Shown piece by piece: positions 10,847 through 61,989 of a stretch of 64,000 nucleotides of DNA. Source of the DNA: Pseudomonadota bacterium (lineage in GTDB: Bacteria; Bdellovibrionota_G; JALEGL01; DATDPG01); contig JAZDDX010000026.1 of NCBI GenBank assembly GCA_043809315.1, forward strand, positions 10,792-74,791, read 5' to 3'. Below the pieces are notes generated by a model. It did not search any database, was not told the DNA's origin, and saw nothing but the letters and a program-made list of their open reading frames with translations. Position 1 is the stretch's first letter; every line of letters starts with the position of its first letter. Made by a program: the position numbers and the translations under genes.

Positions 10847-10888
10847 GGCCGAATCAGTATAACCTGTTGAAATCCGGGAACGATAGCG

Positions 10889-10917: not shown

Positions 10918-10944
10918 CGTTTTCGGATCGAACCCCCCAACCCC

Positions 10945-12612: not shown

Positions 12613-12622
12613 AGCTCGAAGA

Positions 12623-44243: not shown

Positions 44244-44303
44244 CGGAATCTCCTTTTTCGCGGATTGGACTCCTTCCCCCGGCGGGTGTCAACAGCCCGT
44301 CTT

Positions 44304-46883
<2,580 letters not shown>

Positions 46884-46891
46884 ACAACGGC

Positions 46892-46920
46892 AATAAAGGG
46901 TCGGAAACCGACCTTGTCAA
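46892..46920 (-). promoter_or_regulatory. Putative promoter for clpB (leaderless geometry)
   Basis: Minus strand reads TTGACA (46920-46915), 17 nt spacer containing the inverted repeat GGTCGG-TTT-CCGACC, TTTATT (46897-46892), then 8 nt to ATG 46883. No Shine-Dalgarno. Confidence 0.45.
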
Positions 46921-46925
46921 CGCCC

Positions 46926-47312
46926 TTATCGCTTGGAACTCTCGACGAATCGCAGGCGGAGTTCGTAGAGGACCTGCTCCATCATCTCCGCTTCCTCGCC
47001 GACCAGGTTCCCTTTCGTCTTTTCGGCCAGCATCTCGAGAATATCGATGTCCTGCCGGGCGAGTTCTAAACTGACCCCTCTCTTTTTCGAGATCGGGTCC
47101 TCGACGAGTCCCAAATGAATCGCCGCGGACGTACTCAGAGACATCACGAATGCACTGAAATCAATCTGCCCTCCACCTGTCCGCGGCGCCTTGGGCGCTT
47201 CTTTTTTCGGCGGCGGAGTCGGTTCCGGTTTCCGAACCTCCTCCTCTTTCGTTTCCCCTCTCCGATCGCTGACGGAGAATCCCCGGTTTTCGGTTTCGTT
47301 CGAATCGCTCAC
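46926..47312 (-). CDS. DUF1844-family protein
   Basis: 128 aa with a GTG start overlapping the upstream TGA (GTGA). FSAFVMSLSTSAAIHLGL...LELARQDIDILEMLAEKTKGNL...LYELRLRF matches the DUF1844 pattern (from memory). Confidence 0.6.
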   Translation of the reverse strand: MSDSNETENRGFSVSDRRGETKEEEVRKPEPTPPPKKEAPKAPRTGGGQIDFSAFVMSLSTSAAIHLGLVEDPISKKRGVSLELARQDIDILEMLAEKTKGNLVGEEAEMMEQVLYELRLRFVESSKR

Positions 47313-48793
47313 GGCTTCCTCGCTTTCGAAGGGGTTGGGGTCGGAGTTGCCGGGACCGGTGTCGGTACCTTCAGCAGCTTCGATCCCTGGTTATGAAATG
47401 TCTCGAGATCGGACGTCGGAATTCGATACCAGATCCCCGATGGCTGCGCCAGGACCTCCGGCTCCCCTCCTTCCGCTGCGAACACCGAGATCGATTCTTT
47501 CCGGTCCCCTGCCGCCAGGCTGACCCGGAGCACCGGATGGGTCGATTTCACCGTCCCGCTCTTGCCGAGGTACTCCCTCGCCTTGAAGTTTCCCAGGTAC
47601 GAGAGGAAAGAGCCGATGCCGGCCTCATCCGCCTCGACACCGGCCGGTTTCGCCGCCGTCCACTTCTCCCCTTTTTTCCAAAGCTCCGTCCGGTCCCCCT
47701 CCCGATCGACCTCCACCGACGTGATCTTTGCCGACTCGAGGGTGAACGGACTCTTCGCAACGAACGAGTTGAAATTCTTCGAGAGCTTCTCTCGCATATA
47801 CGAGGCGATCGAAAAGATCTGCGGCAGGTCGAGTCGGCGGAGGGAAAACCCCTTCCCCGGATCATTCTCATCCCCACCGCCGGCGATCAACTCCTGCGTC
47901 TCCTTCCCCTGATTCGTTTCGATCTCGAGCGCAATCCTCGCGAACGGACGATCGAGGCTGAACTTTTTCGCATCCACTCCGGCGTTGTCGCTGGCGATTT
48001 CGGTCGCACGCAGTGACTTGAGCTCGTTCAGGAAGATGTCGACCGCCGATCCGTCCGCGCGGCTTCGGGTCGGCTCGAGAATCTCCCAAACCCCTTTAGC
48101 GTCGCGCCCGACGACCACCCGCTCTTTTTTCTTCCCCTTCACGACGTCAACGGTGATCTTTTTCACTTTCGTCGGTTCTTTGATCCCGATCACCTCTTTC
48201 TTCCGCCAGTCGGAAAACTTCCGGGTCCGGAGATAGTCGAGCGACATCCCCGCGAGATGGATCTTCGGGGAGGCAGAGGTCTGGACATAAATCCCGTTCG
48301 CCGCCGTGTTCGAGTCGCCGATCGAGACCGCGAGAAGCGGGTTCTTCTCCCCTTTTCCGAACAGCTCCACTTTGACTTTCGCCGGGACGAGACCGTACTC
48401 CGTCGGATGTTCCCCCGTCTCCGAAACGGTTTTCGATGCGGTCAGATCCTTGAGATTCGCGAGCAGCGTCGTCACTGCGAAGTGGTCCGGAAGGGTTTCG
48501 ACCGGTTCTACGATCCGCCACTCCGGCACGATCTCGAACTCCTCCGTGAACCGCGCAAACCGGTCCGTGAAATTCCCTTTGCCATCCTTCCGACGGCGCT
48601 CCAGCGTGACCGACCCGTCCGTTTCCGAAATGACGATGCGATCGACCTTTTCTAGGTCCAAGCTGACGATCGACTGCTCCTTCTTTTTTTCCCCTTCGGA
48701 CTTTTCCTGCCCCTTCCGATGCCCCCAGACGACGAAAAGAAGAGCGATCAATAGAAGAAATGCCCCGGCGATCTTCGCTAACTCCCGCTTCAT
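47309..48793 (-). CDS. DUF4340-like protein (partner of GldG-type ABC accessory proteins)
   Basis: Track ORF 47309..49420 trimmed to ATG 48793, 5 nt after the upstream stop. N-terminal anchor is MKRELAKIAGAFLLLIALLFVVW. The family call rests on position after a GldG-like gene and on the repeat-like beta-rich sequence. Confidence 0.6.
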   Translation of the reverse strand: MKRELAKIAGAFLLLIALLFVVWGHRKGQEKSEGEKKKEQSIVSLDLEKVDRIVISETDGSVTLERRRKDGKGNFTDRFARFTEEFEIVPEWRIVEPVETLPDHFAVTTLLANLKDLTASKTVSETGEHPTEYGLVPAKVKVELFGKGEKNPLLAVSIGDSNTAANGIYVQTSASPKIHLAGMSLDYLRTRKFSDWRKKEVIGIKEPTKVKKITVDVVKGKKKERVVVGRDAKGVWEILEPTRSRADGSAVDIFLNELKSLRATEIASDNAGVDAKKFSLDRPFARIALEIETNQGKETQELIAGGGDENDPGKGFSLRRLDLPQIFSIASYMREKLSKNFNSFVAKSPFTLESAKITSVEVDREGDRTELWKKGEKWTAAKPAGVEADEAGIGSFLSYLGNFKAREYLGKSGTVKSTHPVLRVSLAAGDRKESISVFAAEGGEPEVLAQPSGIWYRIPTSDLETFHNQGSKLLKVPTPVPATPTPTPSKARKP

Positions 48794-48798
48794 CCCGA

Positions 48799-50670
48799 TT
48801 ACCCCTTTCGGCGGCGATACCACCAGAGGTTGATCCCGAAGATCAGAACGAGCATCGGGATCGTCACGACCGCCACGTAGAAGACCATGTTGCTCTGTTC
48901 CGGGGTCAGGTCGATCATGGACGTCCGCAGCTGTTTTGGCCGGATCGAGATCTGCTCCACCGTCTCGCCGAGCCAATTGAACACGTTGAGCGTCAGATCG
49001 AAGTTGAACTCGTAGCTCCGGAGGTTCCCGTTCATCATGAAGTCGCTGTCCCCGATTACCACCAACTGCGTCTTCTTCCCGTCGGTCTCTTTTTCCGTCG
49101 CCATCGCGAACGGAATCGGCCCGATCCGGTCTTTCGGACCCGGCTTGACCTCTTGGCGCCGGAAAAGCGAATCGACATCCTCTTTCGTCCAGCTGGCATT
49201 GTTCCCCGCACTCTGGATCAACTCCGTCGTGAGAACGGCAAATCCCTCCGCTTTCTTGAGCGAGCGAACCGCGTCGAAGACGGTCTGTTTCCCCTTGAGC
49301 GGATCTACGATCGGATGGCTCCCGTAGTTGAACGCCTGAACCGTCAGGCCGGTTACCACCCCCCGTAACAGTTCGAGATGCGCTTCGAGGATGAAGTCGC
49401 GCCCGAGTTCGATCCCCCATTTCTTCGTCACGTTTTCAAGGCCGCTCTCTTGAACACTGATCCGCCCGGCCGCCATCCTTGGATCGGGAATCCGCGGGTC
49501 GAGCAGAAAGAACCCTTTTCCACCTCCGTCAAGATACTTCCCGACCGCCCCCGCCTCCGCATCCGTGAATCGCTGGAGTGGCCCGGCGATCACGATCATC
49601 GAGCAGCCGGCCGGTACTCCGCCGACGACCGACTCGATCGATTTGACCTTGATCCCCTCGTTCTCGAGCCCCTTCTTCAAGTAGCTCGCGCTCCGCGGGG
49701 AATCTTCGGCAGCGTCCACGCCGAGTTCGCCGTGACCCTTCGTGAAGCAAGCGGTCGGCGTGACGGTCCGGGCGACCTTCAGGATCGCCTGGGTCATCCC
49801 CTCCTCGGTTACCGCCTGCGTGACGTACGACTGGGTCCCGTACTCGATGACGATATCGCCGTCCTTCGCTTTGTGTTTCTCCGCGAGCAGCCTCTCCTTG
49901 TCCGGGTCGACGAACTTCGTCTCGACCTTCTTCGACCGGTACCCGTACATACCGAAGAGTTCTTTGAGCGCCGGCTTCTTCTCGTTCCGGTCGTCGAAGA
50001 AAGCGGTGATCCGGAGCGGTTCTTTCAACCCCTCGACCGCCTTCACCGATTGCTCGGCCAGCGTATTGACCTGGTTCTCCGTGAAATCTTTCTGCCAGTG
50101 GAAATCGGTCGACATGACGTTTGCGACGATGATCACGCCGATCGAAAGGACCGAGTAAATGACGGCGGTCGTGCCGTACCTCAACGATCGCTTCTCGAAC
50201 ATCTGTTTGAGTGCGATTCTTCCCAGATAGACGAAGATGCCGTTGTGGAGGAACGCGCAGGCCAGGACGCCATACCCGTACCCGCTCTTCTCCGCCGCGA
50301 AAACCACTCCTGCAAATGTCGCTCCGACAACCCCGGCGCCGATCCCGGCCGCCAGCATCCCCGCGTCGACGAACCCGGCCGCGAACAGGCCGAGCACGCT
50401 CACTCCCCCGGCCAACGACAATTTCCAGATAGCCCACTCTTTCCCCGCGATCAGGAAAATCCATGGCAGGTTGACGGCGACCAGAATGGCGACCAACCGT
50501 TGCCAGAGCCGGCTTAGGGTCGTCACGACGAAGGCCACCAGGAACGCGCACCCGGCGATCAAGAGCCCCCAGAAGAACCAGGTCGACACGTGGGTAAACG
50601 CGAACGCCAGCATTCCGGACAGGATCAGGATTCCGCCGGTAATTCCCAGACATTGGAAGATTACGTTCAT
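48799..50670 (-). CDS. GldG-like ABC-transporter accessory protein
   Basis: 623 aa with N-terminal and C-terminal TM spans flanking a large periplasmic region. It directly follows an ABC-2 permease and ATPase, as in gldA/F/G-type sets. Confidence 0.6.
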   Translation of the reverse strand: MNVIFQCLGITGGILILSGMLAFAFTHVSTWFFWGLLIAGCAFLVAFVVTTLSRLWQRLVAILVAVNLPWIFLIAGKEWAIWKLSLAGGVSVLGLFAAGFVDAGMLAAGIGAGVVGATFAGVVFAAEKSGYGYGVLACAFLHNGIFVYLGRIALKQMFEKRSLRYGTTAVIYSVLSIGVIIVANVMSTDFHWQKDFTENQVNTLAEQSVKAVEGLKEPLRITAFFDDRNEKKPALKELFGMYGYRSKKVETKFVDPDKERLLAEKHKAKDGDIVIEYGTQSYVTQAVTEEGMTQAILKVARTVTPTACFTKGHGELGVDAAEDSPRSASYLKKGLENEGIKVKSIESVVGGVPAGCSMIVIAGPLQRFTDAEAGAVGKYLDGGGKGFFLLDPRIPDPRMAAGRISVQESGLENVTKKWGIELGRDFILEAHLELLRGVVTGLTVQAFNYGSHPIVDPLKGKQTVFDAVRSLKKAEGFAVLTTELIQSAGNNASWTKEDVDSLFRRQEVKPGPKDRIGPIPFAMATEKETDGKKTQLVVIGDSDFMMNGNLRSYEFNFDLTLNVFNWLGETVEQISIRPKQLRTSMIDLTPEQSNMVFYVAVVTIPMLVLIFGINLWWYRRRKG

Positions 50671-50672
50671 GG

Positions 50673-51470
50673 CTACCTCCAGCTCACCGATTCAAGCGAC
50701 CGCTTCGTCAGGAACAAGAACAGGAAGATGATGCTCAGGAAATAGACGAGATCCCGCGTGTCGAGAACCCCGCGCAGCAGATTCTTCAGATGATCGGCCA
50801 CCGCGATGTACCTCACGAGATCCCCGATCAGCGTCCCCTCGGCGACCGAAATGAAGTTGATGATGAACATGAAGAGGACGATCACGAACGTCACCACCGC
50901 CGCGATGATTTGGTTCTCCGTGAGCGACGACGCGAAGAGGCCGATCGCCACCCCGCACCCCGCGAAGAGGACTACCCCCAGGTACCCCAGAACGACCGGG
51001 CCCGCCTCCGGGGAGGCGAGCTTGAAGAGGACGACTTGATAGGCAACCGTCGGGAGGAGCATCGCAACCAGGAACGCGAACGCCCCGAGAAACTTTCCCG
51101 CCAGGATCTCGTTGACCGTGAGCGGGGAAGTCAAGAGGAGTTCGTCGGTCTTCTGCCGTTTCTCCTCCGCGAACGACCGCATCATGATCAGCGGGAGCAG
51201 AAACAGAAAGACGAAAATCATGTTGAAGAGCGCCGGCGCGATCACCCATTCGTTCAGGTTCAGGCGGCTCAGCATCTCCGGGTTTTGATAGACCTGCATC
51301 ATGTTCCGCATGTAGCGGATCCGCTCCTGGAACCGGACCAAGCCAAAATGGAAGAAGTATCCCGACAATGTCAGGAAGATCATCATCACGACGTACGCGA
51401 TCGGCGAGACGAAGTAGTGTTTCAGCTCTTTCTGGACCAACGCCCAGGTGTTCGACAGGGTTCCCATCAT
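50673..51470 (-). CDS. ABC-2 type transporter permease
   Basis: Track ORF 50673..51845 trimmed to ATG 51470 (ATGA overlap with the ATPase stop). N-terminus is MMGTLSNTWALVQKELKHYFVSPIAYVV. It has six hydrophobic spans. Confidence 0.8.
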   Translation of the reverse strand: MMGTLSNTWALVQKELKHYFVSPIAYVVMMIFLTLSGYFFHFGLVRFQERIRYMRNMMQVYQNPEMLSRLNLNEWVIAPALFNMIFVFLFLLPLIMMRSFAEEKRQKTDELLLTSPLTVNEILAGKFLGAFAFLVAMLLPTVAYQVVLFKLASPEAGPVVLGYLGVVLFAGCGVAIGLFASSLTENQIIAAVVTFVIVLFMFIINFISVAEGTLIGDLVRYIAVADHLKNLLRGVLDTRDLVYFLSIIFLFLFLTKRSLESVSWR

Positions 51471-52201
51471 GCCACCTCCGCTTTCGGCTCCGATTCTTCT
51501 CTCGTGATCAGATCGACGAACAGTTCCTCGAGCGTCCGCTCCCTCGTCAGATCCGCGACGCCCCCCTCCAGGACGATCCGCCCGCGATTGATGATCACCG
51601 CCCGCTGGCAGACCATGGTCACTTCCGGGAGGATGTGCGTCGAGAGGATGATCGTGTGTTCCTTCGACAGCTCCCGGATCAGCTCCCGGATCTCGCGGAT
51701 CTGCCGGGGATCGAGACCGATCGTCGGCTCGTCGAGCACGAGAACCTCCGGCCGGTTGATGATCGCCTGCGCGAGCCCCACGCGCTGACGGAACCCCTTG
51801 GAGAGGTTTCCGATCACCCGTTTCCTCACTTCGCTCAGGCCGCATCGTCCGATCGCCCAGTCGAGCCGCTCGTTTCGATCCGCGGCAGGCACCCCTTTGA
51901 TCTTCATCACGAACTTCAGGTATGACGTCACGTTGAAGTCGGGGTAGAGCGGCGGGTGTTCCGGCAGGTACCCGATCCGTTTTTTCACCTCGAGCGGCTT
52001 CTCGAGGATGTCGAACCCCGCGATGATCGCCGTTCCGCTCGACGGGGGAAGCGCGCCCGTCAGCATCCGCATCGTCGTCGTCTTCCCGGCGCCGTTCGGC
52101 CCGAGAAACCCCAAGATCTTCCCCTTGTCCACGCGGAACGAGATCCCGTTCACCGCACGCAGTTCACCGTACGATTTCGAAAGATTCCGAGCTTCGATCA
52201 T
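51467..52201 (-). CDS. ABC transporter ATP-binding protein
   Basis: 244 aa. Walker A is GPNGAGKTT, the signature is LSKGFRQRV, Walker B is VLVLDEPT, and an H-loop is present (STHIL). Confidence 0.93.
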   Translation of the reverse strand: MIEARNLSKSYGELRAVNGISFRVDKGKILGFLGPNGAGKTTTMRMLTGALPPSSGTAIIAGFDILEKPLEVKKRIGYLPEHPPLYPDFNVTSYLKFVMKIKGVPAADRNERLDWAIGRCGLSEVRKRVIGNLSKGFRQRVGLAQAIINRPEVLVLDEPTIGLDPRQIREIRELIRELSKEHTIILSTHILPEVTMVCQRAVIINRGRIVLEGGVADLTRERTLEELFVDLITREESEPKAEVA

Positions 52202-52286
52202 CCGTCACCTCGATGCGTTAAACAAACCAAGAATTCCGCCGCTGTCAAGCCGCTGCGAAGGGGCGTATATTATACGAACTTCTTCG

Positions 52287-54260
52287 ATGTTGCCCTTTCC
52301 GCAGGCCCCCAGGAAAAAAAGGCCGAAATCGGGACCGCCGGATTTTCCGAAGGTGCCGCTTTCGGAGCTGAGCCGCCTTCGCCTCTTTCGCGATCTCCCG
52401 GAGGAACCGGTCCGGCTTCTCGAGGGTGCCGTACGCCGCGCAGCGGCAGTTCCGGACGAAACGATTCTGGAGATGATGCAGGAGGACGAACCGTTCCGCT
52501 ATTTCTTTTTCCTCGTCCAGGGACAAGTGAAGGTGGTCGGGTTCGACGACGAGGCGCGCCCCAAGGTGCTCAACTTCCTCCGAAAAGGAGAGTTCTTCGT
52601 CGACAAATCGATCACCTGGCGGGGACAGGTTTCGACCAAGGTCATCGCCATCACCGACGTCGAACTCTGGATCGTCCCGCGGGAGAGTCTCCGGAACCTG
52701 GCGCAGGAGTACCCGCCGTTCCACGAGATGGTTCTCCGTCTCGGGGACCGGATCGACTACCGGAACCGGATCTATACCGAAGACAAATACGCCCGCTCGG
52801 TTCTGGAGTTCCTGATCCGCACCGAACTCACGCAGGCCTCGAGTGTCAAGATCACACAGATGGACAAGTGCATCGAATGCGACACCTGTTATCAGGCGTG
52901 CGAGGACCGTCACGGCTTCCAGCGTCTCTCCCGCGGGTACGCCCGGTTCGGGATCCTCGATTTCGCCCAGAGCTGCATCACCTGCTTTTACCCCGCCTGC
53001 ATCCCCCCCTGCCCGGTGGATGCGATCGTGTTCAGTCCCAAGTCCGGCCAGGTCGAAATTCTCGACAATTGTATCGGGTGCGCCGCCTGCGCGCATGCTT
53101 GCCAATACGGCGCGATCCGGATGCACCGCACGATCGCCGGGGATTCGCGGTTCGCGCGATTCAAGCCGGAGAACCCGCGCGTTAAACTCAAGTTCGTCGC
53201 CGACAAGTGCGACCACTGCGACGGGTACGACGACATGACCTGCATCACGAGCTGTCCGACGGGGGCGATCATCGAGGTCGAGGCGACCGACCTCCTCGAG
53301 AACCCCAAGGTGTTCGGCGCCGACGAAGGGGGGCGGCGCTCCCTTCCCAGCATGACGGAGAGCGGCTGGTTCCGCTCCCTCCTGCAGGCGGGGTATGTCG
53401 CCGCGATCCTTTTCTTTGCGTCGCTCCTCGGTTGGGAAGCCCTCGCCCTCACCCGCTGGCCCGCCCTTTCCGTCCTCTCGACCCTTCAACGGGACCGCTT
53501 TGTCCCGGCTGACTTTACGATGAAGTTCGAGAAAGGTTCGGACCTCTGCGTCCTCCTGGGAAACGTCGGGTTCGTTCTGGTCCTCTTTTCGCTCCTCTAC
53601 CCATTCCGGAAGGCGTTCCCGCGATTGTTCAAGCATTTGGGGCGAAAACCGGTCTGGCTTGATTTTCACAACTCCTGCGGAATCTTGGGAACGATCTTCG
53701 TCTTGTTCCATACCGGGCTTTATTTTCCATTCGCCCCGGCGTCGTTCGCCTATCTCTCGCTGGTTCTCGTCATGTTGAGCGGGATCTTCGGCCGCTTCCT
53801 CTACATGACGATCCCCCGCGGCGTGGCGGGAACCGAACTCAAAATGCGCGACATCGAGGAGGAGGATGCGGCGATCACGCAAAAACTCGACGCCCTCTTC
53901 GGCGGTTCCGAGCGGCACCGCGCATGGGTGAACCGGATCGTCGCTTCTCTCACGCACGAGGCGGACGACGCCTCCTCCGTTCTCGCTCTGATCCGGGCCA
54001 TGATTCAGACTCGTCTTCTCCTTCTCCGCTTCCGGCTCCATCCTCCCGCGGAAGTTCGGGACCAGGGGCGCCAGATCGGCGTCTTCTTGCGTCTTCTCCA
54101 CCGGAAAATCCGTTTGGCCCGGAACGTCGCCTTCCTGGGGCTCACCTCCCGTCTCTTTGTCCGGTGGCAGTACGTCCACCGGCCGTTCGCTTACGCCCTC
54201 GGCGCGTTGGCGACCGGTCACGTGATCTATAATGTTCTTTACTTCAACTGGGGCGCCTGA
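52287..54260 (+). CDS. CAP-effector-like domain / four [4Fe-4S]-motif ferredoxin domain / C-terminal membrane domain protein
   Basis: Track ORF 52008..54260 trimmed to ATG 52287. The N-terminal cNMP-binding-like beta-roll (LFRDLPEEP...FFFLVQGQVKVVG...LRKGEFF) has a degenerate phosphate-binding cassette. Cys motifs: CIECDTCYQAC, CITCFYPACIPPCP, CIGCAACAHAC, CDHCDG-x7-CITSCP. The C-terminal ~300 aa have 5-6 TM spans, and two helices each carry H-x13-H (DFHNSCGILGTIFVLFH; VHRPFAYALGALATGH). Confidence 0.8.
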   Translation: MLPFPQAPRKKRPKSGPPDFPKVPLSELSRLRLFRDLPEEPVRLLEGAVRRAAAVPDETILEMMQEDEPFRYFFFLVQGQVKVVGFDDEARPKVLNFLRKGEFFVDKSITWRGQVSTKVIAITDVELWIVPRESLRNLAQEYPPFHEMVLRLGDRIDYRNRIYTEDKYARSVLEFLIRTELTQASSVKITQMDKCIECDTCYQACEDRHGFQRLSRGYARFGILDFAQSCITCFYPACIPPCPVDAIVFSPKSGQVEILDNCIGCAACAHACQYGAIRMHRTIAGDSRFARFKPENPRVKLKFVADKCDHCDGYDDMTCITSCPTGAIIEVEATDLLENPKVFGADEGGRRSLPSMTESGWFRSLLQAGYVAAILFFASLLGWEALALTRWPALSVLSTLQRDRFVPADFTMKFEKGSDLCVLLGNVGFVLVLFSLLYPFRKAFPRLFKHLGRKPVWLDFHNSCGILGTIFVLFHTGLYFPFAPASFAYLSLVLVMLSGIFGRFLYMTIPRGVAGTELKMRDIEEEDAAITQKLDALFGGSERHRAWVNRIVASLTHEADDASSVLALIRAMIQTRLLLLRFRLHPPAEVRDQGRQIGVFLRLLHRKIRLARNVAFLGLTSRLFVRWQYVHRPFAYALGALATGHVIYNVLYFNWGA

Positions 54261-54319
54261 TCCCCCTCCTTGGGTTTTTTCGTGACGCTCCAGGAACGAC
54301 TTCGTACGATGGAATCTCG

Positions 54320-56341
54320 TTGTCCCGATCGTTGTTTCTGAAAATCGTGGTTCTCTGCGCGGCGTGCGCTTCCGGTGCCGCGTTCGCGCAGCTTGATTTC
54401 ATGAAATGGATCAACCCGGGCCCGCTCGCCCGGCCGCACGACACGCTAGAAGGGGTGTCGAACTGCGGCCTCTGTCACGCCACGGCCAAGGGGATTCCCG
54501 ACTCCAAATGTCTCGATTGTCATACCGAGATCCGGGAACGGCTCGAGAAGAAGCTCGGGTATCACGCCCGCCAGACCGACCCGTGCGTCAAGTGCCACAG
54601 CGACCACAAGGGACGCGACTACGATCTTCTAGCCCTCAAGCGGGTCAAGTTCGACCACCAGAACGTCGGGTGGGCGCTCAACGGAGCGCACGGGAAGGTC
54701 GACTGCCGCAAGTGCCACACGCAGACCCGTGTCGACGTGAAGACCCACCTTCCGACCCGGCGCCCTTCGTACCTCGGCGCCCCGACCGTCTGTCTCCCCT
54801 GCCATCCGGACATTCACAAAAGCGCGGAACCGGCCTGGCAACGATGTGAACTCTGTCACGACGAGTCGGTCTGGAAACCGATGCGAACTCCGGCGGAGTT
54901 CGACCACACGCGAGACAGCAAATATCCGTTAACCGGGAAACACGCCAAAATCGACTGCTACGCTTGCCACAAACAGAAGACCTGGAAACCGCTCTCGTTC
55001 GCTCGCTGCCTCGATTGTCACCCGGACCCGCACAAGAACGCCTTCGGGCCGAAGTGCGAGATCTGCCACGTGACGGCGAACTGGAAGAAGCTCCTGATGA
55101 AAACCCCCCAAGGAGTCCGGTTCGACCACCAGAAGACGAAGTTCTCGTTGAGCGGCGCACATTTCCAGGTCCCGTGTCTCACCTGCCACGGGCCGACGAT
55201 CGGGAAGATGACCGGGTTCGATCAGTGTACGGGGTGCCACAACAACCCCCACGGGAACGAATTCCAGGAGAAGTGGAACGTCCGGAAGGAGTGTTCGAAA
55301 TGTCACGTGACCGAAGGGTGGACGATCCTCAACTTCCAGCACGGCCGCGATTCTCGGTACGATCTCCTCGACAAACACAAGCAGGTGCCGTGCGAGCAGT
55401 GCCACGTCGACCGGAAATACCGGTGGCTCGCATCCTCCCCCGATTGCGACGTCTGCCATCTCGACGTTCACGTTAAACAATTCACGAAGGCATGCGTTGT
55501 TTGCCACACACAGAAAGGGTTCGACACCCTCAAGTTTGATCACAATAAAGACTCGAAGTTCCCGATCGTCGGGAAACACAAGGCGGTCGGTTGCGAGAAG
55601 TGTCACGAGGCGGGGAAGTACACGGGGATCGACCATCGGTGCCAGGGGTGCCACACCGATTTCCACAACAATCAGCTGGGGGTCGAATGTTCCCGTTGCC
55701 ACGCGCCGATCGCGATGAACGACATCGCCTTCGATCACAAACATGCGTCTCGATTCCGCGTCGAGGGGGCGCACGAGAAGGTCGCGTGCAATCAGTGCCA
55801 CCTCGACTATCACTACCGGCCGCTTTCGTCCGAGTGCTCCTCCTGTCACGAGGATGCGCACAAGGGAACGTTCGGGCCCGCATGCCAACGCTGCCACGTC
55901 ACGTCGAGTTTCCGGCCGCGAAAGGGATTCCACGACTTCGGCGCGTTTTCGTTGGGTGGGGTCCACGATCGGTTGGATTGCAAGGTCTGTCACGCCCCGA
56001 CCTCGCCTGGGCGGATCCAGCCGGCCCAATGCGCCGCCTGCCATCGCGATCCGCACCTGGGGTCGCTCGGCCCCGACTGCGCCGGGTGCCACACACAGGT
56101 CGCTTGGCTTCCCTCCAAGTTCCGCCACACTCAAACCGGCTTCCAGCTCTCCGGCGCGCACCGATTTCTCTCGTGCGATCGCTGCCACTTCAACCGGGTT
56201 TTCGGCGGTCTCCCGCAGGACTGTGCTTTCTGCCATCAGAAAGATTTCGTACCGGCCACGAAGATCCCGCAGCACCTCGGCGCTTCCTCGCAGTGCGAGA
56301 GCTGTCACTACACGTACGGCTGGAGGCCGGCGAAGCGATGA
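54320..56341 (+). CDS. Periplasmic multihaem cytochrome c with 27 CxxCH motifs (poly-c7/c3-type repeats)
   Basis: 673 aa. The signal is MSRSLFLKIVVLCAACASGAAFA. I counted 27 CxxCH motifs, from CGLCH through CESCH, arranged in a recurring three-motif unit. Alternative (TTG) start at 54320. Confidence 0.9.
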   Translation: MSRSLFLKIVVLCAACASGAAFAQLDFMKWINPGPLARPHDTLEGVSNCGLCHATAKGIPDSKCLDCHTEIRERLEKKLGYHARQTDPCVKCHSDHKGRDYDLLALKRVKFDHQNVGWALNGAHGKVDCRKCHTQTRVDVKTHLPTRRPSYLGAPTVCLPCHPDIHKSAEPAWQRCELCHDESVWKPMRTPAEFDHTRDSKYPLTGKHAKIDCYACHKQKTWKPLSFARCLDCHPDPHKNAFGPKCEICHVTANWKKLLMKTPQGVRFDHQKTKFSLSGAHFQVPCLTCHGPTIGKMTGFDQCTGCHNNPHGNEFQEKWNVRKECSKCHVTEGWTILNFQHGRDSRYDLLDKHKQVPCEQCHVDRKYRWLASSPDCDVCHLDVHVKQFTKACVVCHTQKGFDTLKFDHNKDSKFPIVGKHKAVGCEKCHEAGKYTGIDHRCQGCHTDFHNNQLGVECSRCHAPIAMNDIAFDHKHASRFRVEGAHEKVACNQCHLDYHYRPLSSECSSCHEDAHKGTFGPACQRCHVTSSFRPRKGFHDFGAFSLGGVHDRLDCKVCHAPTSPGRIQPAQCAACHRDPHLGSLGPDCAGCHTQVAWLPSKFRHTQTGFQLSGAHRFLSCDRCHFNRVFGGLPQDCAFCHQKDFVPATKIPQHLGASSQCESCHYTYGWRPAKR

Positions 56342-57720
56342 TTTGGAGGGGCCTCCGTTGTTCGGCCGTTCTCGTTCTGCTGGCCGTTCCGGCCGGCGCG
56401 ACCGAGGTGCACGGCGGGGGGGAACTCGGCTTCTGGTATCTCCAAAACGACGTCTCCGATGCCGCAGGATTTCAACTCGACGACGGATACGGCGCGATCT
56501 ACGTGCAACGACGGTACATGCTCGGGAACCTCCACCTGAAGCTGGACGCCCTCGATCTAGGGAACGGGTCGAACACGAAATACAACACCCATTTCGACGG
56601 TCGTGTACTCTGGAACATTAATCATCACGCCGACTCCCTGGCGATTCCCGATCGAACCCGGCAGCAAGTCGACGAGCTTTCCCTCGAGGCTGCGGGGATC
56701 GGAGAGCGAACCGATCTCTGGCTCGGACGTCAGACGTTGTATGAAGCGGGGGGGGTCGGCGTCGACGGGGCCCGTGTCATCTACCATCTTTCGGATCAAT
56801 TGGGGTTCGGGGTCTACGGAGGGTTGGCGAACGACCCGCGGAACTTCACCGGTTATATCGGCCCCGCGTATCGCTCCCGACCGTTCTCGAGTCACTTCGA
56901 AACGGGCGGCTTGTTCTTGAGCCAGAAGAGCGAGCGGTTGCGACTCGACGCTGCCGTGAACGCCGGGTTTTACAAGGCGAAGATCGACCGGCTCGCCGTT
57001 TACTCGCAAGCGGTCTATCAGCTCAACCCGACCTGGACCTTTTCCGGGATGGCCGATCTCGGCGTGGCGGGGGATCGGGGGATCAAGGGTGTTTCGGCGT
57101 TTGTTACGACCCGCGTGACGAGCCGGATCACCAACACGGCGTCTTTTCTCCGGTTCACGACCCTTCGATACAAGGAATCGAATGTCTCTGCGATCCCCGT
57201 TCCGGCGGGGATCGACGCCTCCCTCGTCCGCGGGGCCGATGTCGTCACGTCGTCGTATAATTCCGGCCGGGACCAGGTCCAGATCCGGATCCTGGATCGG
57301 AACTACATCTTCGGTGGTTTTCAGGTGACCCGTCGGACGTTCGACGACGCGAATCAGTTCAAATACACCGCCGGATACCGTGATCCGACGCTGTTCGGAT
57401 CGACGTTCGATCTGCGGCTCCAGACCGACGTGATCGACAACTACCGCGGGTTCAACACCGCGCTCGACACACTTCTGGGGAAAGAGTTTTCCGACGGGAA
57501 GGTGCGCCTGGAGGGGGGCGCGACGTTTTATGCGAACGAACGGAACCTCGCGAGCGAGGTCGGAAAGGACCGCTCCTACCGGTTCAACGTTTTCTATCTC
57601 CCGACGAAAACGTTCTCCTGGCTGATCAACTATGCCCTGCACGAAGAGCGCGATGTCGTGAACGGTTCGCAGCGGATTCGGGTCCATGACCTCTATTTCT
57701 CAAGCGCATTCAGATTCTAG
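56338..57720 (+). CDS. Predicted outer-membrane beta-barrel protein
   Basis: Track ORF 55591..57720 trimmed to ATG 56338 (ATGA overlap with the cytochrome stop). The signal is MIWRGLRCSAVLVLLAVPAGA. It shows an alternating amphipathic beta pattern with abundant Y/G/N/D and ends ...LYFSSAFRF (terminal Phe). Confidence 0.7.
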   Translation: MIWRGLRCSAVLVLLAVPAGATEVHGGGELGFWYLQNDVSDAAGFQLDDGYGAIYVQRRYMLGNLHLKLDALDLGNGSNTKYNTHFDGRVLWNINHHADSLAIPDRTRQQVDELSLEAAGIGERTDLWLGRQTLYEAGGVGVDGARVIYHLSDQLGFGVYGGLANDPRNFTGYIGPAYRSRPFSSHFETGGLFLSQKSERLRLDAAVNAGFYKAKIDRLAVYSQAVYQLNPTWTFSGMADLGVAGDRGIKGVSAFVTTRVTSRITNTASFLRFTTLRYKESNVSAIPVPAGIDASLVRGADVVTSSYNSGRDQVQIRILDRNYIFGGFQVTRRTFDDANQFKYTAGYRDPTLFGSTFDLRLQTDVIDNYRGFNTALDTLLGKEFSDGKVRLEGGATFYANERNLASEVGKDRSYRFNVFYLPTKTFSWLINYALHEERDVVNGSQRIRVHDLYFSSAFRF

Positions 57721-57782
57721 GAACTTTAGTTCCCTATATATTTTATGTGTATGTCGTTGTAAATATATGTGAAATAATCGTA

Positions 57783-57945: not shown

Positions 57946-58971
57946 CTATCTTCGGGCAGCGTGCCCGGCGTGCACGCGTTTCTTCGGGGGAACCATGGCG
58001 GGGATCTTCTTCGTCGGTTTCGCGACCATTTTCTTCGGCTCCGGCTGCAGCGCCATCACCTTCTCGATGACCCGGTGCAGGCGGTCTTCTTTCGCGTCCC
58101 TCCGCAGATCGGCCAGAATCGGCTGCGGCCGGTTCGGAACCAGCTCGTTCGAAAGGACCCCTTCGACATTGAAGAGGATCCGCGGGACCGCTTCCTCCGC
58201 ATCGATCTCCGACGGCCCGAGAAACGAGATCTTTCCGACGGCATCTGCGAATCGATAGGTCGGCACCGGCACTTCAGTTTCAAGATCGTACACCCGCACC
58301 AGGGTCTGGAAGTTCTCGATCGCTCGTCGGACTTCGTAGACGGGAAGACCGAGGCGGCTGGCGTACGGGTCTCCATTCGCCGTTCGCGGGCAGTATTCCA
58401 GGAACCGGACGTGAAGCGGGCGGTCTTTCGTCATCCGCGCGAAGTCGATGACCTCCTCCTCGTTGATCCCCTTCAGCAGGTGAATGTGCAGCCGGATCTC
58501 GGAGAAGTTGAGCTTCTCCACCTTGTCGATCCCATCGAGCACGCGGTAGAGCGAGTCCCGCCCGGTGATCCGCTGGTACTTCATGAAGTTCAGGCTGTCG
58601 AATGCGACGTCAACTTTCCGAAGCCCCATCTTCCGGAGCGGATCGGCGAATGTCTTGAGGAACGTTCCGTTCGTGACGAGACGGACATCCGAGATCGCTT
58701 TGTGTGCAAACGCCGCCTTAACGAAGTTCGCCGCGTCTTTTCGCAGAAGGGGCTCTCCCCCTCCGATCAAGATCTTTGTCACACCGAGCTCGCCGACGAT
58801 TCGGATCAGCTTCGTCACGTCGGACGGCTGAACCGGGTTCTTGGTCGAAAACAACTCGCGGGACGATCCGACGGATCGGCAGTAGAAACAACTCAGGTTG
58901 CATTCCCCCGTGATCGAAAGACGCAATGTACGCGCGATCGGACTGACGTTGTCCCGAACCGTTGCAACCAT
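57946..58971 (-). CDS. Radical SAM protein with MoaA-like core but no C-terminal auxiliary-cluster cysteines
   Basis: 341 aa. GGAGGG lies 6 nt upstream of ATG 58971. Motifs: LRLSITGECNLSCFYCRS (CxxxCxxC) and GGGEPLLRKD. The C-terminal region aligns in shape with the MoaA second-cluster region, but all three Cys positions are acidic residues (see findings). It has a basic C-terminal tail. Confidence 0.8.
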   Translation of the reverse strand: MVATVRDNVSPIARTLRLSITGECNLSCFYCRSVGSSRELFSTKNPVQPSDVTKLIRIVGELGVTKILIGGGEPLLRKDAANFVKAAFAHKAISDVRLVTNGTFLKTFADPLRKMGLRKVDVAFDSLNFMKYQRITGRDSLYRVLDGIDKVEKLNFSEIRLHIHLLKGINEEEVIDFARMTKDRPLHVRFLEYCPRTANGDPYASRLGLPVYEVRRAIENFQTLVRVYDLETEVPVPTYRFADAVGKISFLGPSEIDAEEAVPRILFNVEGVLSNELVPNRPQPILADLRRDAKEDRLHRVIEKVMALQPEPKKMVAKPTKKIPAMVPPKKRVHAGHAARR

Positions 58972-59124: not shown

Positions 59125-59478
59125 TCAGTCCGGGGCCGCTTTTCGTTCTTTCAGAACCTGGAGGATCTCTTTCCGCCCCTCGTCGTTCAATTCTACGAAC
59201 TTGATCCCCATTCCGGGGGGACCGTCCGGGTCGTTGTTGACCCACTGCACAATTCCGGAGCCGGCGATCTTCTCTCCGCCGTCGCGAACGAGAAATTCGA
59301 ACCGGATCTTCGTCCCGACCGGCTTCGGATGATCGGTGCGAAGGAACAATCCCCCCGCCCCCAAATTGTCGACCAGCCGCTGGCGCCGAGCGGAAACCCC
59401 CTCGAAAACGATGGCAAGGGTTGTTTCGAGGGCGATCCGGGGAAACTTTCTGCGGTTGTGTGGATTCTCCTGCACCAT
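59125..59478 (-). CDS. Stand-alone PilZ-domain protein
   Basis: Track ORF 59125..59871 trimmed to ATG 59478, because the upstream part is antisense to the PBP gene. It has RRKFPR (RxxxR) and DNLGAGG (DxSxxG variant with Leu for Ser). Confidence 0.8.
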   Translation of the reverse strand: MVQENPHNRRKFPRIALETTLAIVFEGVSARRQRLVDNLGAGGLFLRTDHPKPVGTKIRFEFLVRDGGEKIAGSGIVQWVNNDPDGPPGMGIKFVELNDEGRKEILQVLKERKAAPD

Positions 59479-59496
59479 TAGACTTCTGTTTCTGCC

Positions 59497-61989
59497 ATGG
59501 ATACCTCCGATTCCAAAGCACGATTTCACACCTCCGTCCGCTGGATCGGGCTCGGGTTCGTCGGGGCGATCCTCCTCGTCGTCGGTTTCCTCCTGGCGTT
59601 TTCGTTCATCACTTGGAAACTCCCGTCGGTCTCCGCGCTCAAAGACTTCCACCCGCCCGTGGTCAGCGAGGTCTACAGCGACGAGTTCGTAAAGATCGGG
59701 GAGTTCTACCAGGAGCGTCGCGTATACGTGCCGCTCGGGCAGATCCCGCCGCTTGTCGCGCAGGCGTTCATCGCCGCGGAGGATTCCCAGTTTTTCAAAC
59801 ACAAGGGGATTTCTCTGACCGGGATCGCACGAGCCTTCTTCAAGAACCTCCTGGCGGGGGAGGCCAAACAAGGGGGGAGCACGATCACGCAGCAGGTCGC
59901 CAAACAGCTTCTTCTTTCGCCGGAGCGGAGCCTGTTGCGGAAGTTCCGGGAAGCGTTCCTCGCATCCAAGATGGAGCGGTTCCTCTCGAAAGAGGAGATC
60001 CTCGAGATCTATTTAAACCAGATCTACCTCGGCCACACCGCCTATGGCGTCGAGGCGGCCGCACGGGTCTACTTCGGAAAAGACCTGTCCGATCTCTCGC
60101 TCGCCGAAATCGGAGTTCTCGGAGGGTTGCCCCGCGCCCCGAGCCGCGACAATCCGATCACCAGCCCCGAGCGTGCGAAAGAGAAGCTCGCCTACGTTCT
60201 CACCCGGATGGTGGAGGAGAATTACATCACCCAGAGTGATCGGACCGCCGCCCTCGCCCAGTCGATTCGCCCCGTCGCCGAGACCAACATCAATCTCCGG
60301 CACGCTCCATACTTCGTCGAACATGTCCGTCGGTACGTCACCGAGAAATACGGTGACGATGCGGTTCTCTCGGGCGGACTTCAGATCTTCACCGGGCTTT
60401 CCGCCCGCGCTGCCCCCGGAGCGACGCAGGCGCTCCGCGACGGCCTTGAGGAACTCGATCGTCACGAGGGATACCGGGGGCCCTCCCGGAACCTCCCCCC
60501 CCTCGAACGCCCCGCGTTTCTCGAGAAACTCGACGCCGAGCGCGGGGAGGCGCCGCTCGAGCGGGACAAGACCTACCCTGGAGTCGTCACCGAGGTGAAG
60601 GACGACCGTGGCCTGGTCTTCGTGAGTCTTGGAAACCGGACCGGTGCGATTCCGATCGATCTCATGGCGTGGGCGCGCAAACCGAACCCCGATCTTCTCT
60701 GGAGCAGTCATCGGATCGACAAACCCTCCCAAGCGTTGAAAGTGGGGGATGTGATCCAGGTACGTCTTTCCTCTCGCGAGACAACTAAGACGCTCCCGTC
60801 AGGGGTCGCCCTCCTCGAACTGTTCCAGGAACCGCTGGTGCAGGGGGCGCTCGTTGCGCTCGACCCACAGACCGGCGTCATCCGCGCCATGGTGGGGGGA
60901 TACGATTTTGAAAAAAGCGAGTTCAACCGCGCCGTGCAAGCGCGCCGCCAGCCAGGGTCCGCATTCAAGCCGATCACCTACGCCGCCGCCCTCGATCGCG
61001 GATACACGCCCGCGAGCATCCTCGTCGACGCGCCGTTCACCTACGACGATCCCACCACGGAGTTCCGATGGCGTCCGAAGAATTTCGGCGGGAAGTTTTC
61101 CGGAGACACGATCTTCCGCGAATGCCTGATCGAATCGCGGAACGTCCCGACGATCAAGATCGTGCAAGATCTCGGCGTCGACACCATCATCTCGTACGCC
61201 CAACGTCTCGGGATCTCCTCCCCTCTCGCGCGGAACTTTTCCCTGGCCCTCGGATCGTCCGGCGTCACCCCGATCGAGTTGATCTCCGCCTTTTCCGTAT
61301 TTGCGACGGGGGGGCGGAAGTTCAAGGCGCCGATCGCCGTCAAGAAGATCATCGACCGGAACGGGAAAGTTCTCGAGCGAAACGTCTTCGACGACCCCTC
61401 TCTCGACGTCGAGGAACAAGCGGCCTACGCGGAACAGTTGGCCGAGTCGGCTGACCAGGATCGGGCGGCGATCCAGCTCGGGAAAGATCCGAAAGCGGAA
61501 CTCCCGGCCGGATACGCTCTAAGCCCGCAAACGGCCTACATCATGACCCACCTCTTGAAACAGGTGATCACCTCCGGAACCGGGCGGCGCGCGGCGGCGA
61601 TCAACCGCCCCGCCGCCGGAAAGACCGGCACGACGAACGACAACCACGATGCCTGGTTCATCGGGTTCACTCCGACGCTGGTGGCCGGGATCTGGCTCGG
61701 GTTCGACGATTCCGGGTCGACCCTCGGCCTCTCTGAAGAAGGGGGGCATGCCGCAAGCCCCGTCTGGCTCTCCTTCATGCTGAAAGCGCTCGACGAAACG
61801 CCGATCACCGATTTCAAAGTGCCGGAGGGGGTCGTCTTCGCCCAGATCGATCCCAAAACGGGAAAACTAGCGACGGCAAAAACGAAGGACGCCGTCTTCG
61901 AAGTCTTTCGCGAAGGGACGGAACCGAAAGAGACGACCGAAGAAGCCGCGACGAAAAAGAGTTCGCAACAGTTCTTCCTTCAAGAATGA
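59497..61989 (+). CDS. mrcA: Class A penicillin-binding protein (PBP1A type: glycosyltransferase + transpeptidase)
   Basis: 830 aa with an N-terminal TM anchor. GT51 motifs: EDSQFFKHKGI and GGSTITQQVAK. Transpeptidase motifs: SAFKP, SRN, KTGTT. Confidence 0.93.
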   Translation: MDTSDSKARFHTSVRWIGLGFVGAILLVVGFLLAFSFITWKLPSVSALKDFHPPVVSEVYSDEFVKIGEFYQERRVYVPLGQIPPLVAQAFIAAEDSQFFKHKGISLTGIARAFFKNLLAGEAKQGGSTITQQVAKQLLLSPERSLLRKFREAFLASKMERFLSKEEILEIYLNQIYLGHTAYGVEAAARVYFGKDLSDLSLAEIGVLGGLPRAPSRDNPITSPERAKEKLAYVLTRMVEENYITQSDRTAALAQSIRPVAETNINLRHAPYFVEHVRRYVTEKYGDDAVLSGGLQIFTGLSARAAPGATQALRDGLEELDRHEGYRGPSRNLPPLERPAFLEKLDAERGEAPLERDKTYPGVVTEVKDDRGLVFVSLGNRTGAIPIDLMAWARKPNPDLLWSSHRIDKPSQALKVGDVIQVRLSSRETTKTLPSGVALLELFQEPLVQGALVALDPQTGVIRAMVGGYDFEKSEFNRAVQARRQPGSAFKPITYAAALDRGYTPASILVDAPFTYDDPTTEFRWRPKNFGGKFSGDTIFRECLIESRNVPTIKIVQDLGVDTIISYAQRLGISSPLARNFSLALGSSGVTPIELISAFSVFATGGRKFKAPIAVKKIIDRNGKVLERNVFDDPSLDVEEQAAYAEQLAESADQDRAAIQLGKDPKAELPAGYALSPQTAYIMTHLLKQVITSGTGRRAAAINRPAAGKTGTTNDNHDAWFIGFTPTLVAGIWLGFDDSGSTLGLSEEGGHAASPVWLSFMLKALDETPITDFKVPEGVVFAQIDPKTGKLATAKTKDAVFEVFREGTEPKETTEEAATKKSSQQFFLQE

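Follow-up and report, generated by a model that had tools for sequence, protein, structure and literature searches.

A candidate trans-envelope electron conduit in an uncultured Bdellovibrionota genome, related to the predicted PCC3/PCC4 clusters and with a putative cytoplasmic electron input

How might electrons from the cytoplasm of a Gram-negative cell reach its surface without passing through a quinol dehydrogenase? The question is raised by three adjacent genes in a stretch of 64,000 nucleotides, hereafter the window, from a subsurface bacterium assigned to Bdellovibrionota (GenBank assembly GCA_043809315.1, contig JAZDDX010000026.1, positions 10,792 to 74,791 of the forward strand). To our knowledge, all well-studied Gram-negative pathways of extracellular electron transfer (EET) begin at an inner-membrane quinol dehydrogenase, be it CymA, ImcH, CbcL or CbcBA. 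We judge it moderately probable that genes 1-3 form a self-contained trans-envelope conduit that is related to the predicted porin-cytochrome clusters PCC3 and PCC4 and whose inner-membrane step would be fed from the cytoplasm and not by quinol. A preliminary description of this DNA had proposed a chain from an Fe-S module through di-haem b and a 27-haem rod to an outer-membrane barrel, and that core withstood the sequence-level tests that the description itself had named as able to refute it.

The three genes are co-directional open reading frames (ORFs) on the + strand, with the coordinates first proposed for them:

52287..54260, + strand: gene 1, ATG start, 657 aa, recognised from its ORF, motifs, Pfam/NCBIfam matches and AlphaFold2 (AF2) model (predicted local distance difference test, pLDDT, 70)
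54320..56341, + strand: gene 2, TTG start, 673 aa, with a signal peptide and 27 CxxCH motifs
56338..57720, + strand: gene 3, 460 aa, with a signal peptide, an AF2 barrel and an ATGA overlap with the gene 2 stop

A public call of gene 1 (P0027, 635 aa) begins 22 codons 3' of the ATG at 52287. Conservation of an N-terminal KKKxGxPPxFP segment in homologues supports the upstream ATG as the true start.

About 40 full-length homologues of gene 1 were found, the named ones from uncultured Bdellovibrionota/Oligoflexia metagenome-assembled genomes (MAGs), and conservation was read from an alignment of 27 homologues at 48-68% identity. A genome scan with the gene 1 profile yielded 12 loci and a metagenome scan with the gene 3 profile five more; mapping was by tblastn and hidden Markov model (HMM). 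For the wider family, a profile search of 1.84 billion representative proteins returned 182 with E <= 1e-30, and domain HMMs assigned architecture classes to 149 of the best 150 representative relatives.

Gene 1 combines, in this order, a cyclic-nucleotide-binding (CNB)-like domain, a HycB-type module with motifs for four [4Fe-4S] clusters and a five-helix membrane domain:

52344..52781, + strand: CNB-fold beta-roll with a long C-helix, residues 20-165 (Pfam, Foldseek, cassette alignment)
52851..53294, + strand: four-cluster polyferredoxin module, residues 189-336 (16 invariant Cys; HycB3 match)
53349..54257, + strand: PCC3-type inner-membrane domain, residues 355-657 (AF2 helices, hydropathy, Lys/Arg distribution, homology)

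In the membrane domain, AF2 places confident transmembrane (TM) helices at about residues 361-390, 419-443, 454-478, 484-508 and 617-652, with a cytoplasmic helical insert of about 100 residues between TM4 and TM5. Both H-x13-H strings that had been pointed out earlier are present, H461..H475 and H631..H645, as parts of the longer motifs W457-x3-H461-x13-H475 on TM3 and W627-x3-H631-x13-H645 on TM5; S498-G-I-F-G502 lies on TM4. Location of the pairs outside TM helices, or their loss in homologues, would have told against the proposed chain. Both pairs lie in predicted helices, and all four His are invariant in the 27 homologues, as are W457, W627, G499 and G502; both H-x13-H motifs are also kept in 69 of the 70 representative relatives that have a membrane domain. 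The positive-inside rule, applied to Lys/Arg-rich segments at 444-456 and 510-615, is satisfied if the N-terminal Fe-S module is cytoplasmic, a topology that would turn H461 and H631 toward the cytoplasm and H475 and H645 toward the periplasm. As modelled, the arrangement is the geometry of a stacked di-haem b. Sub-threshold matches to Ferric_reduct, DUF4405 and PepSY_TM recur in 25, 26 and 14 of the 27 homologues, and one stand-alone membrane-domain relative exceeds the DUF4405 threshold (29 bits). Four central His are common to DUF4405, PepSY-like and MsrQ-like proteins, and haem b binding by DUF4405 has been demonstrated experimentally (PMC11334425).

The four [4Fe-4S]-type Cys motifs previously noted are all there (C195/198/201/205, C230/233/238/242, C262/265/268/272 and C308/311/319/323; spacings CxxCxxCxxxC, CxxCx4CxxxCP, CxxCxxCxxxC and CxxCx7CxxxCP), and all 16 Cys are invariant in the alignment. 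Of solved structures, HycB3 (7qv7_A) comes closest to this module, with E 4.8e-15 across residues 189-336; in hydrogen-dependent CO2 reductase this subunit serves as an electron wire of four clusters. Matches to the NCBIfam models HydN, AegA and DmsB all fall under their cut-offs, as does Fer4_11 (PF13247; 22.2 bits against 26.2). Neither a signal peptide nor a twin-arginine (Tat) peptide precedes the module in gene 1.

The N-terminal domain matches Pfam cNMP_binding (PF00027) over residues 64-142 (50.8 bits against a cut-off of 27.5; 1.7e-13), and its AF2 beta-roll carries a long CRP-like C-helix. CNB domains of CRP, GlxR and PKG head the Foldseek matches of the gene 1 model, with probability 1.00 for CRP and PKG; searched whole, the model gave a CNB-dominated list and nothing informative for the membrane domain. 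The phosphate-binding cassette is degenerate, as had been reported. Aligned with PKG, F-G-E-A-A-L...R-S-A corresponds to F104-V-D-K...V115-S-T in gene 1, so that V105-D106 and V115-S116-T117 stand at the canonical G-E and R-[ST]-A positions. None of the gene-1-type fusions has the GE..R[ST]A motif, which is kept in soluble relatives with two CNB domains and Fe-S motifs and in a longer fusion (P0273). Since the residues that contact a cyclic nucleotide (cNMP) are lost and yet the cassette-equivalent segment N96-K107 is nearly all invariant in the 27 homologues, the site appears to be conserved for a purpose other than cNMP binding. The suggestion that this is a ligand-sensing domain is thus weak, as the Gly-Glu and Arg of cNMP binders are missing from all gene-1-type fusions; most likely, judging by sequence, the domain serves for dimerisation or docking, or has a different ligand. 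Classification of gene 1 as a CRP/FNR-type regulator was rejected, because Pfam and NCBIfam scans found no helix-turn-helix (HTH) family and Fe-S motifs follow the CNB fold.

Gene 2 bears out its first description as a signal-peptide protein with 27 CxxCH motifs in a repeating three-motif unit: it has exactly 27 in frame, against none in each of the other five frames, and they group into nine three-haem repeats, or nine c7-type units. Pfam Cytochrome_C7 matches in 9 stretches (108.7 bits), and the protein spends 24.9 residues per haem. With 58 His in the protein, nearly all of its haems could have bis-His ligation. Among the ORFs of the window, only gene 2 has two or more CxxCH motifs, and phmmer against the sequences of solved structures found nothing at E <= 0.001. 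Orthologues of gene 2 share contigs with genes 1 and 3. The protein aligns end to end with the 27-haem cytochrome of a PCC3-type locus, L013 (31.5% identity over 688 aligned positions), and over its full length with that of a distant locus, L014 (36%). Exactly 27 haems occur in 12 loci (the window and 11 others), including L013 and the distant L014, L015 and L016, and this fixed count suggests a constraint on length. The Geobacter protein GSU1996 is about 12 nm long; by proportion, nine c7 modules would come roughly to the width of the periplasm. GSU1996, built of four c7 modules, is wire-like (PMC11492766), and PCC3 cytochromes have been suggested, in a survey of Gallionellaceae, to span the width of the periplasm (PMC10734462). 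The constant 27 haems across distant lineages thereby offer a testable "molecular ruler" hypothesis for periplasm width.

Gene 3 overlaps the stop of gene 2 through ATGA, begins with a signal peptide and ends in ...AFRF, all as first described. A count of strands in its AF2 model gives a 22-strand beta-barrel with neither plug nor periplasmic domain (pLDDT 79.9; predicted template modelling score 0.71). It is the only one of the three genes that matched nothing in Pfam, NCBIfam or the Protein Data Bank sequences. Kinship with MtrB-type barrels, a comparison proposed at the outset, was not borne out by HMM or structure: no MtrB_PioB match appeared in Pfam, and Foldseek returned only generic outer-membrane barrels (porin, usher and AlgE-like; template modelling score about 0.4), with MtrB outside the top 50. 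The family is small, with about 26 database homologues, the named ones again from uncultured Bdellovibrionota/Oligoflexia MAGs. Two segments stand out:

56830..56895, + strand: DPRNxTGYIGPxYR, the most conserved segment of the barrel, gene 3 residues 165-186, in a long loop after strand 7
57172..57240, + strand: second conserved long loop (SAIPVP, 281-288), gene 3 residues 279-301, after strand 13

G172, Y173, I174, G175, P176 and Y178 of the first loop, which is modelled at low confidence, are invariant in 25 sequences; in the second, S281 and S284 are invariant and I286, P287 and V288 nearly so. Because both follow odd-numbered strands, strand parity would make them extracellular, and they may be able to fold into the lumen. 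Without a partner to fill it, a barrel of this kind would leave the outer membrane perforated. Together with the strict coupling in translation between the barrel and cytochrome genes, this speaks for a c7 module of gene 2 as the occupant of the barrel.

Linkage across loci supports a functional unit. Genes 1, 2 and 3 are syntenic in the Bdellovibrionota clade. In all 13 loci that extend upstream of a gene 3 relative, a cytochrome with 22-27 haems lies directly 5' of it and is translationally coupled to it; gene 3 is thus no generic porin. Gene 1 adjoins in 11 of 13 loci with a gene 3 relative, and a c7-type cytochrome follows gene 1 in every locus with downstream sequence, which answers the concern that gene 1 might normally be unlinked to cytochromes. 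Distant barrels that match the gene 3 profile (E 2e-19 and 1.5e-13) likewise overlap the stop of 27-haem cytochromes, at L014 and L016/L017, where the conserved Bdellovibrionota synteny is absent. The neighbours of the cytochrome and barrel pair at L014 and L016 include no recognisable inner-membrane redox partner. Genes that intervene between genes 1 and 2 at L001, L002, L005 and L006 were rejected as components, being lineage-specific small secreted or unrelated proteins that are not conserved.

The architecture has a close precedent. He et al. predicted the PCC3 and PCC4 porin-cytochrome clusters in Fe(II) oxidisers in 2017 (PMC5566968). A PCC3 cluster comprises a porin, a long periplasmic cytochrome with 21-27 haems, an extracellular multihaem cytochrome and an inner-membrane protein (IMP); PCC4 comprises a porin, three periplasmic cytochromes (4, 5 and 10 haems) and an IMP, with no extracellular cytochrome (PMC5566968). 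The IMPs of both carry five TM helices, W-x3-H-x13-H on TM3 and TM5 and SGxxG on TM4, and those of PCC3 and PCC4 are said to be different sequence families (PMC5566968). In PCC4 subgroup II an Fe-S gene (pfam13247) lies directly 5' of the IMP gene, and in Oceanospirillum beijerinckii the two are annotated as one fused gene (PMC5566968). The membrane domain of gene 1, and gene 2, are homologous to PCC3-type parts. The statement that this is "not a described architecture" was, in view of these predictions, overstated.

The homology is clearest against the PCC3-type cluster of L013, which reads 289-aa membrane protein with both motifs, 661-aa 27-haem cytochrome, 1192-aa 47-haem protein and 716-aa outer-membrane protein. 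By blastp, residues 379-652 of gene 1 are 30% identical to that membrane protein (E 3e-21; HMM E 1.7e-28), and every motif falls opposite its counterpart. At 4886-6939 of L013, immediately 5' of the IMP gene, are genes for a response regulator and a histidine kinase, and a CycH-like protein (cytochrome c biogenesis) follows the porin. Like PCC3, the window has a five-TM IMP domain with both His motifs and SGxxG, a repetitive periplasmic cytochrome in the 21-27-haem class and an adjacent barrel, in the order IMP, cytochrome, barrel. Unlike PCC3, it has no second, extracellular multihaem cytochrome, either in its 64 kb or in syntenic loci; the profile of gene 3 (460 aa, 22 strands) misses the 716-aa L013 porin, the sole PCC3-type porin compared; the IMP is a fusion with CNB-like and four-[4Fe-4S] parts where PCC3 has a separate protein of about 300 aa; and the host belongs to Bdellovibrionota, whereas the hosts in He et al. 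were Alpha-, Beta- and Gammaproteobacteria (PMC5566968). The fusion of the IMP to these cytoplasmic parts argues against the published quinone-coupled model of PCC3. Set beside PCC4 subgroup II by description, the locus shares the lack of an extracellular cytochrome and the same motif signature, and its N-terminally fused four-cluster module may correspond to the Fe-S gene beside the PCC4 IMP, with PF13247 itself under its cut-off; it differs in having a single 27-haem chain in place of three cytochromes of 4, 5 and 10 haems, and a CNB-like domain, none being reported for PCC4.

Other systems are less close. The MtrB barrel has 26 strands, in an MtrCAB complex of known structure, and the 10-haem MtrA needs periplasmic shuttles and the quinol dehydrogenase CymA. 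The locus would share the working principle of MtrAB, MtoAB and PioAB, a multihaem cytochrome sheathed by an outer-membrane barrel, and MtoAB and PioAB also lack an extracellular cytochrome. Here the barrel model has 22 strands, the DmsE/MtrA model TIGR03508 scores 15.6 bits against a cut-off of 192.2, and one 27-haem chain with a cytoplasm-fed cytochrome b would do the jobs of both shuttles and dehydrogenase. With NOX, FRE, MsrQ (YedZ), PepSY_TM (FoxB) and DUF4405 proteins, gene 1 shares His pairs 13 apart on TM3 and TM5 and, as in NOX, a cytoplasmic input module; it differs from the ferric-reductase-domain (FRD) family in having five modelled TM helices and not six, the TM4-TM5 insert, four [4Fe-4S] motifs where those proteins have an FAD/NADPH domain, and an acceptor that would be a multihaem cytochrome and not O2, Fe(III) or MsrP. 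A term search of a 2013 survey of FRD architectures gave no Fer4 or cNMP fusion (PMC3591440). In sulfate reducers, Tmc and Hmc link periplasmic multihaem cytochromes c through a membrane cytochrome b to cytoplasmic Fe-S proteins with no obligatory quinone step. The inner-membrane crossing proposed here would connect the same kinds of carrier, but Tmc and Hmc use NarI/NrfD-type subunits, HdrD-like CCG Fe-S proteins and c3-type cytochromes of 4 or 16 haems, are multi-subunit and not fused, and have no outer-membrane barrel; HmcA scores only 16.2 bits here. Among poly-c7 proteins, GSU1996 has 12 haems and GSU2210 27, and 27-haem versions occur in Desulfuromonadia (PMC10138318, PMC11492766). Gene 2 shares their tandem trihaem c7 modules and low residue-to-haem ratio; for the Geobacter proteins these papers report neither a coupled barrel nor an Fe-S-fused cytochrome b.

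What is already known, then, is the membrane-protein family with its signature, the long periplasmic cytochrome family, the adjacent barrel and the overall model of the predicted PCC3/PCC4 clusters. What is new is the fusion of CNB-like and polyferredoxin parts, the Bdellovibrionota host, a PCC3-type 27-haem wire without an extracellular cytochrome and an unannotated family of 22-strand barrels that accompanies 27-haem cytochromes. Literature searches for the fused architecture (cNMP with 4Fe-4S, multihaem and porin; FRD with 4Fe-4S) returned no paper, and one for Bdellovibrionota and extracellular electron transfer returned no report of such conduits and one irrelevant paper.

The case for a cytoplasmic input comes from the wider family. 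Among the 149 classified representatives, 70 have the membrane domain: alone in a protein of about 285-330 aa, as in PCC3 (22), with Fe-S motifs (37), with CNB and Fe-S (9), or with CNB and no detected Fe-S (2). A further 51 are soluble CNB and Fe-S proteins with no membrane domain. In two relatives, P0234 (968 aa) and P0244 (1008 aa), a Pyr_redox_3/Pyr_redox_2 FAD/NAD(P)H domain (E ~1e-40) sits between a Fer4 dicluster and the membrane domain; P0220 (823 aa) also consists of a Fer4 dicluster, Pyr_redox_3/Pyr_redox_2 and a di-haem-type membrane domain. By domain content, the three amount to a bacterial NOX-like architecture made from different parts. At L011, in a Haliangiales MAG, a gene for a Fer4 and flavoprotein-like protein overlaps the start of a 715-aa gene-1-like gene (7344-11707); the flavoprotein-like ORF has 746 aa, a long Pro/Ala-rich tail and a GSGPGG dinucleotide motif read from the translation only. 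Divergent from this pair (1367-6742) lie an SH3-domain protein, a 28-haem cytochrome and outer-membrane proteins, of which the barrel matches the gene 3 profile marginally (E 0.002-0.003). The membrane domain thus seems repeatedly to have recruited cytoplasmic modules for electron input, a pattern that points to the logic of NOX and not of a quinol dehydrogenase. Its fusion or adjacency to NAD(P)H-flavoprotein modules in relatives suggests NOX-like, quinone-free transfer.

Two further branches deserve mention in their own right. P0255, P0260, P0262, P0270 and some 47 further clusters make up a sizeable family of soluble proteins, each about 470 aa long, in which two canonical CNB domains with intact GE..R[ST]A cassettes precede a four-cluster Fe-S module; by sequence they look like cNMP-regulated polyferredoxins. 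A Gemmataceae relative (887 aa; P0068/P0203) carries extra Fe-S/Fer2-type domains.

We propose that a cytoplasmic reductant, either a carrier at the level of ferredoxin or NAD(P)H acting through a separate flavoprotein, would reduce the four [4Fe-4S] clusters of gene 1. Electrons would then pass to the cytoplasm-side haem b (H461/H631) and on to the periplasm-side haem b (H475/H645), following the logic of NOX, FRE, MsrQ and DUF4405. From there they would enter the 27-haem chain of gene 2, whose nine c7 modules are probably long enough to cross the periplasm and one end of which would sit inside the gene 3 barrel, as MtrA does in MtrB. The end of the cytochrome held by the barrel could exchange electrons with soluble or solid acceptors at the surface with no separate extracellular cytochrome. 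Flow would be outward: Fe(III), Mn(IV) or humics outside the cell, or a partner cell, would receive the electrons, either as mere disposal or in respiration. We favour this direction because haems, like Fe(III), Mn(IV) and humics, lie downhill of electrons at Fe-S potentials, because the membrane potential assists outward electrons and because the flavoprotein-fused relatives resemble NOX-type exporters.

Several observations weigh against this interpretation. The direction of flow rests on inference, and cofactor binding, protein contacts and the identity of the donor are deduced from sequence. The AF2 model of the Fe-S region has a pLDDT of 30-45 and was built without cofactors. Gene 1 scores under the Pfam thresholds for haem-b families (Ferric_reduct 13.5 against 28; DUF4405 16.0 against 26.7), and PF01794, PF14358, PF03929 and PF01292 gave no significant match (recorded scores 13.5, 16.0 and 15.8 bits). 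No cytoplasmic donor was found in the window or in syntenic loci, where the Fer4 and Pyr_redox-like query from L011 returned Fe-S cross-matches only. No similarity of gene 3 to MtrB/PioB or to the PCC3-type porin of L013 was detected, and PCC3 itself has been called "functionally unverified" (PMC12442390). The modules are also separable. L015 and L021, metagenome contigs of which one is marine, have the cytochrome and barrel and no gene 1 within 8-9 kb; they form the most divergent gene 3 clade (34% identity), and L015 has a 27-haem cytochrome. Conversely, L007, from a Bdellovibrionota MAG, has no barrel, and the cytochrome after its gene 1 (11987-12727) is only 246 aa long with 6 CxxCH; the system there may have decayed, or it may serve the periplasm only. 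As separate observations, the L007 cytochrome has a Pro/Lys-rich tail, with propionyl-CoA-carboxylase-like genes next to it, and at L015 a carboxyl-transferase gene follows the cytochrome and barrel, as in L007.

The same hardware could instead take electrons up, from Fe(II), reduced minerals, a cathode or a syntrophic partner, through wire and haems b to the Fe-S clusters and so to ferredoxin or NAD(P)+. Multihaem wires are reversible in principle, and the missing extracellular cytochrome recalls MtoAB and PioAB of iron oxidisers. Published models of PCC3 and PCC4, which were discovered in Fe(II) oxidisers, have these clusters take electrons up (PMC5566968, PMC10734462). We nonetheless regard uptake as unlikely: by established bioenergetics the step from the level of Fe(II) to [4Fe-4S] would be steeply uphill and inward transfer would oppose the membrane potential, the window links no genes for carbon fixation or terminal oxidases, and the flavoprotein-fused relatives speak for export. 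It is quite unlikely, in our estimation, that genes 1 and 2 serve the periplasm only, as an electron store (capacitor) or supply for reductases, with gene 3 an ordinary diffusion or export barrel that shares the operon. Poly-c7 proteins like GSU1996 are soluble, periplasmic and discussed as nanowires or electron stores (PMC10138318, PMC11492766), L007 keeps gene 1 and a 6-haem cytochrome with no barrel, and Foldseek saw only generic barrels in gene 3. Set against this are the small size of the barrel family and its unbroken position, translationally coupled, directly 3' of 22-27-haem cytochromes even in distant relatives (13 of 13 loci); the model's plug-less barrel, which would be an open hole without a partner; and a conserved 27-haem length that fits a need to span the periplasm.

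Two readings that set gene 1 apart from EET fare worse. As a membrane-anchored redox or ligand sensor of CRP/FNR fold, with the cytochrome as signal input, it would make sense of the CNB fold with its CRP-like C-helix, of the almost invariant N96-K107, which suggests a site of binding or interaction, and of the soluble relatives with two canonical CNB domains and Fe-S motifs. A sensor is very improbable all the same, because Pfam and NCBIfam scans reveal no HTH or other output domain, the cNMP-contact residues are lost, 16 cluster-ligand Cys with four haem-ligand His would make an electron-transfer chain atypical of sensors, and flavoprotein modules replace the CNB part in relatives. We give equally little credence to an assimilatory ferric or siderophore reductase for iron acquisition, of the FRE or FoxB (PepSY_TM-like) type. 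Weak PepSY_TM and Ferric_reduct matches and the ancestral role of the FRD family as ferric reductases (PMC3591440) are in its favour, but a 27-haem wire with a dedicated barrel would far exceed the needs of periplasmic siderophore reduction, and the three genes are not accompanied in the window by any for a TonB-dependent receptor, siderophores or Feo.

The outward, cytoplasm-fed conduit thus remains our preferred account. If it holds, electrons at the level of cytoplasmic Fe-S proteins would cross the inner membrane through two haems b and reach the surface through a single 27-haem polypeptide, giving anaerobes a new outlet for reducing equivalents, with minerals or partner cells as the recipients. 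It would also revise the role of the inner-membrane protein in the widespread predicted PCC3/PCC4 clusters of iron oxidisers, extend candidate electroactivity to subsurface Bdellovibrionota and supply a compact three-gene module for engineered electron export independent of the host quinone pool. The fusion in gene 1 and its flavoprotein-fused relatives together provide a testable hypothesis for how PCC3/PCC4 electrons cross the inner membrane. A broader claim, which we advance tentatively and with more doubt than conviction, is that the PCC3-type IMP family as a whole might be a NOX-like gate from cytoplasmic low-potential carriers to multihaem wires, not a quinone-reactive one, and that the three-gene unit might be the most compact quinone-free EET pathway known.

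The source of the window sequence is a subsurface metagenome, and its matches are two DNA runs only, with no RNA run among them. Candidate signals for expression flank the three genes:

52242..52271, + strand: sigma-70-like promoter candidate CTGTCA-18-TATATT, 16 nt 5' of the gene 1 ATG, from a consensus scan
57720..57743, + strand: terminator-like short hairpin with a T-rich tail, at the gene 3 stop codon

Both are weak. The promoter candidate matches 9 of 12 consensus positions, and the region holds 2 such sites against 0.8 expected by chance; the hairpin has a 5-bp stem, and there are 10 such sites against 6.4 expected. Long ORFs that run opposite to genes 1-3, or along them in another frame, were rejected as genes, being Arg/Pro-rich, low-complexity translations of 60% GC DNA. 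Examples that overlap the three genes are:

52245..54221, - strand: spurious ORF of 658 aa, the longest
54929-56308, - strand: spurious ORF
55591-57720, + strand: spurious ORF in its upstream part

The first of these is taken for a high-GC artefact because it overlaps a conserved gene.

The genes around the conduit were considered as its partners and rejected, having unrelated housekeeping functions. Those 3' of gene 3 are not conserved among the loci; most of those 5' of gene 1 are, in a divergent block:

57946-58971, - strand: radical-SAM protein, convergent, 3' of gene 3, not conserved beside the conduit elsewhere
59125-59553, - strand: PilZ-domain protein, convergent, overlapping the start of a PBP1A-like gene at 59497, not conserved beside the conduit
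43836-52201, - strand: ACT-domain protein, ClpB, DUF1844, DUF4340, GldG-like ABC auxiliary protein, ABC-2 permease and ABC ATPase

ClpB was named from sequence and length, and PBP1A from its translation. The stretch from ClpB to the ATPase (ClpB, DUF1844, DUF4340, the ABC auxiliary protein and the ABC-2 permease with its ATPase) is itself syntenic and is kept in nearly all related Bdellovibrionota loci, with ClpB 69-79% identical where the locus extends that far. The conduit genes therefore occupy a stable region of the core genome and not an island.

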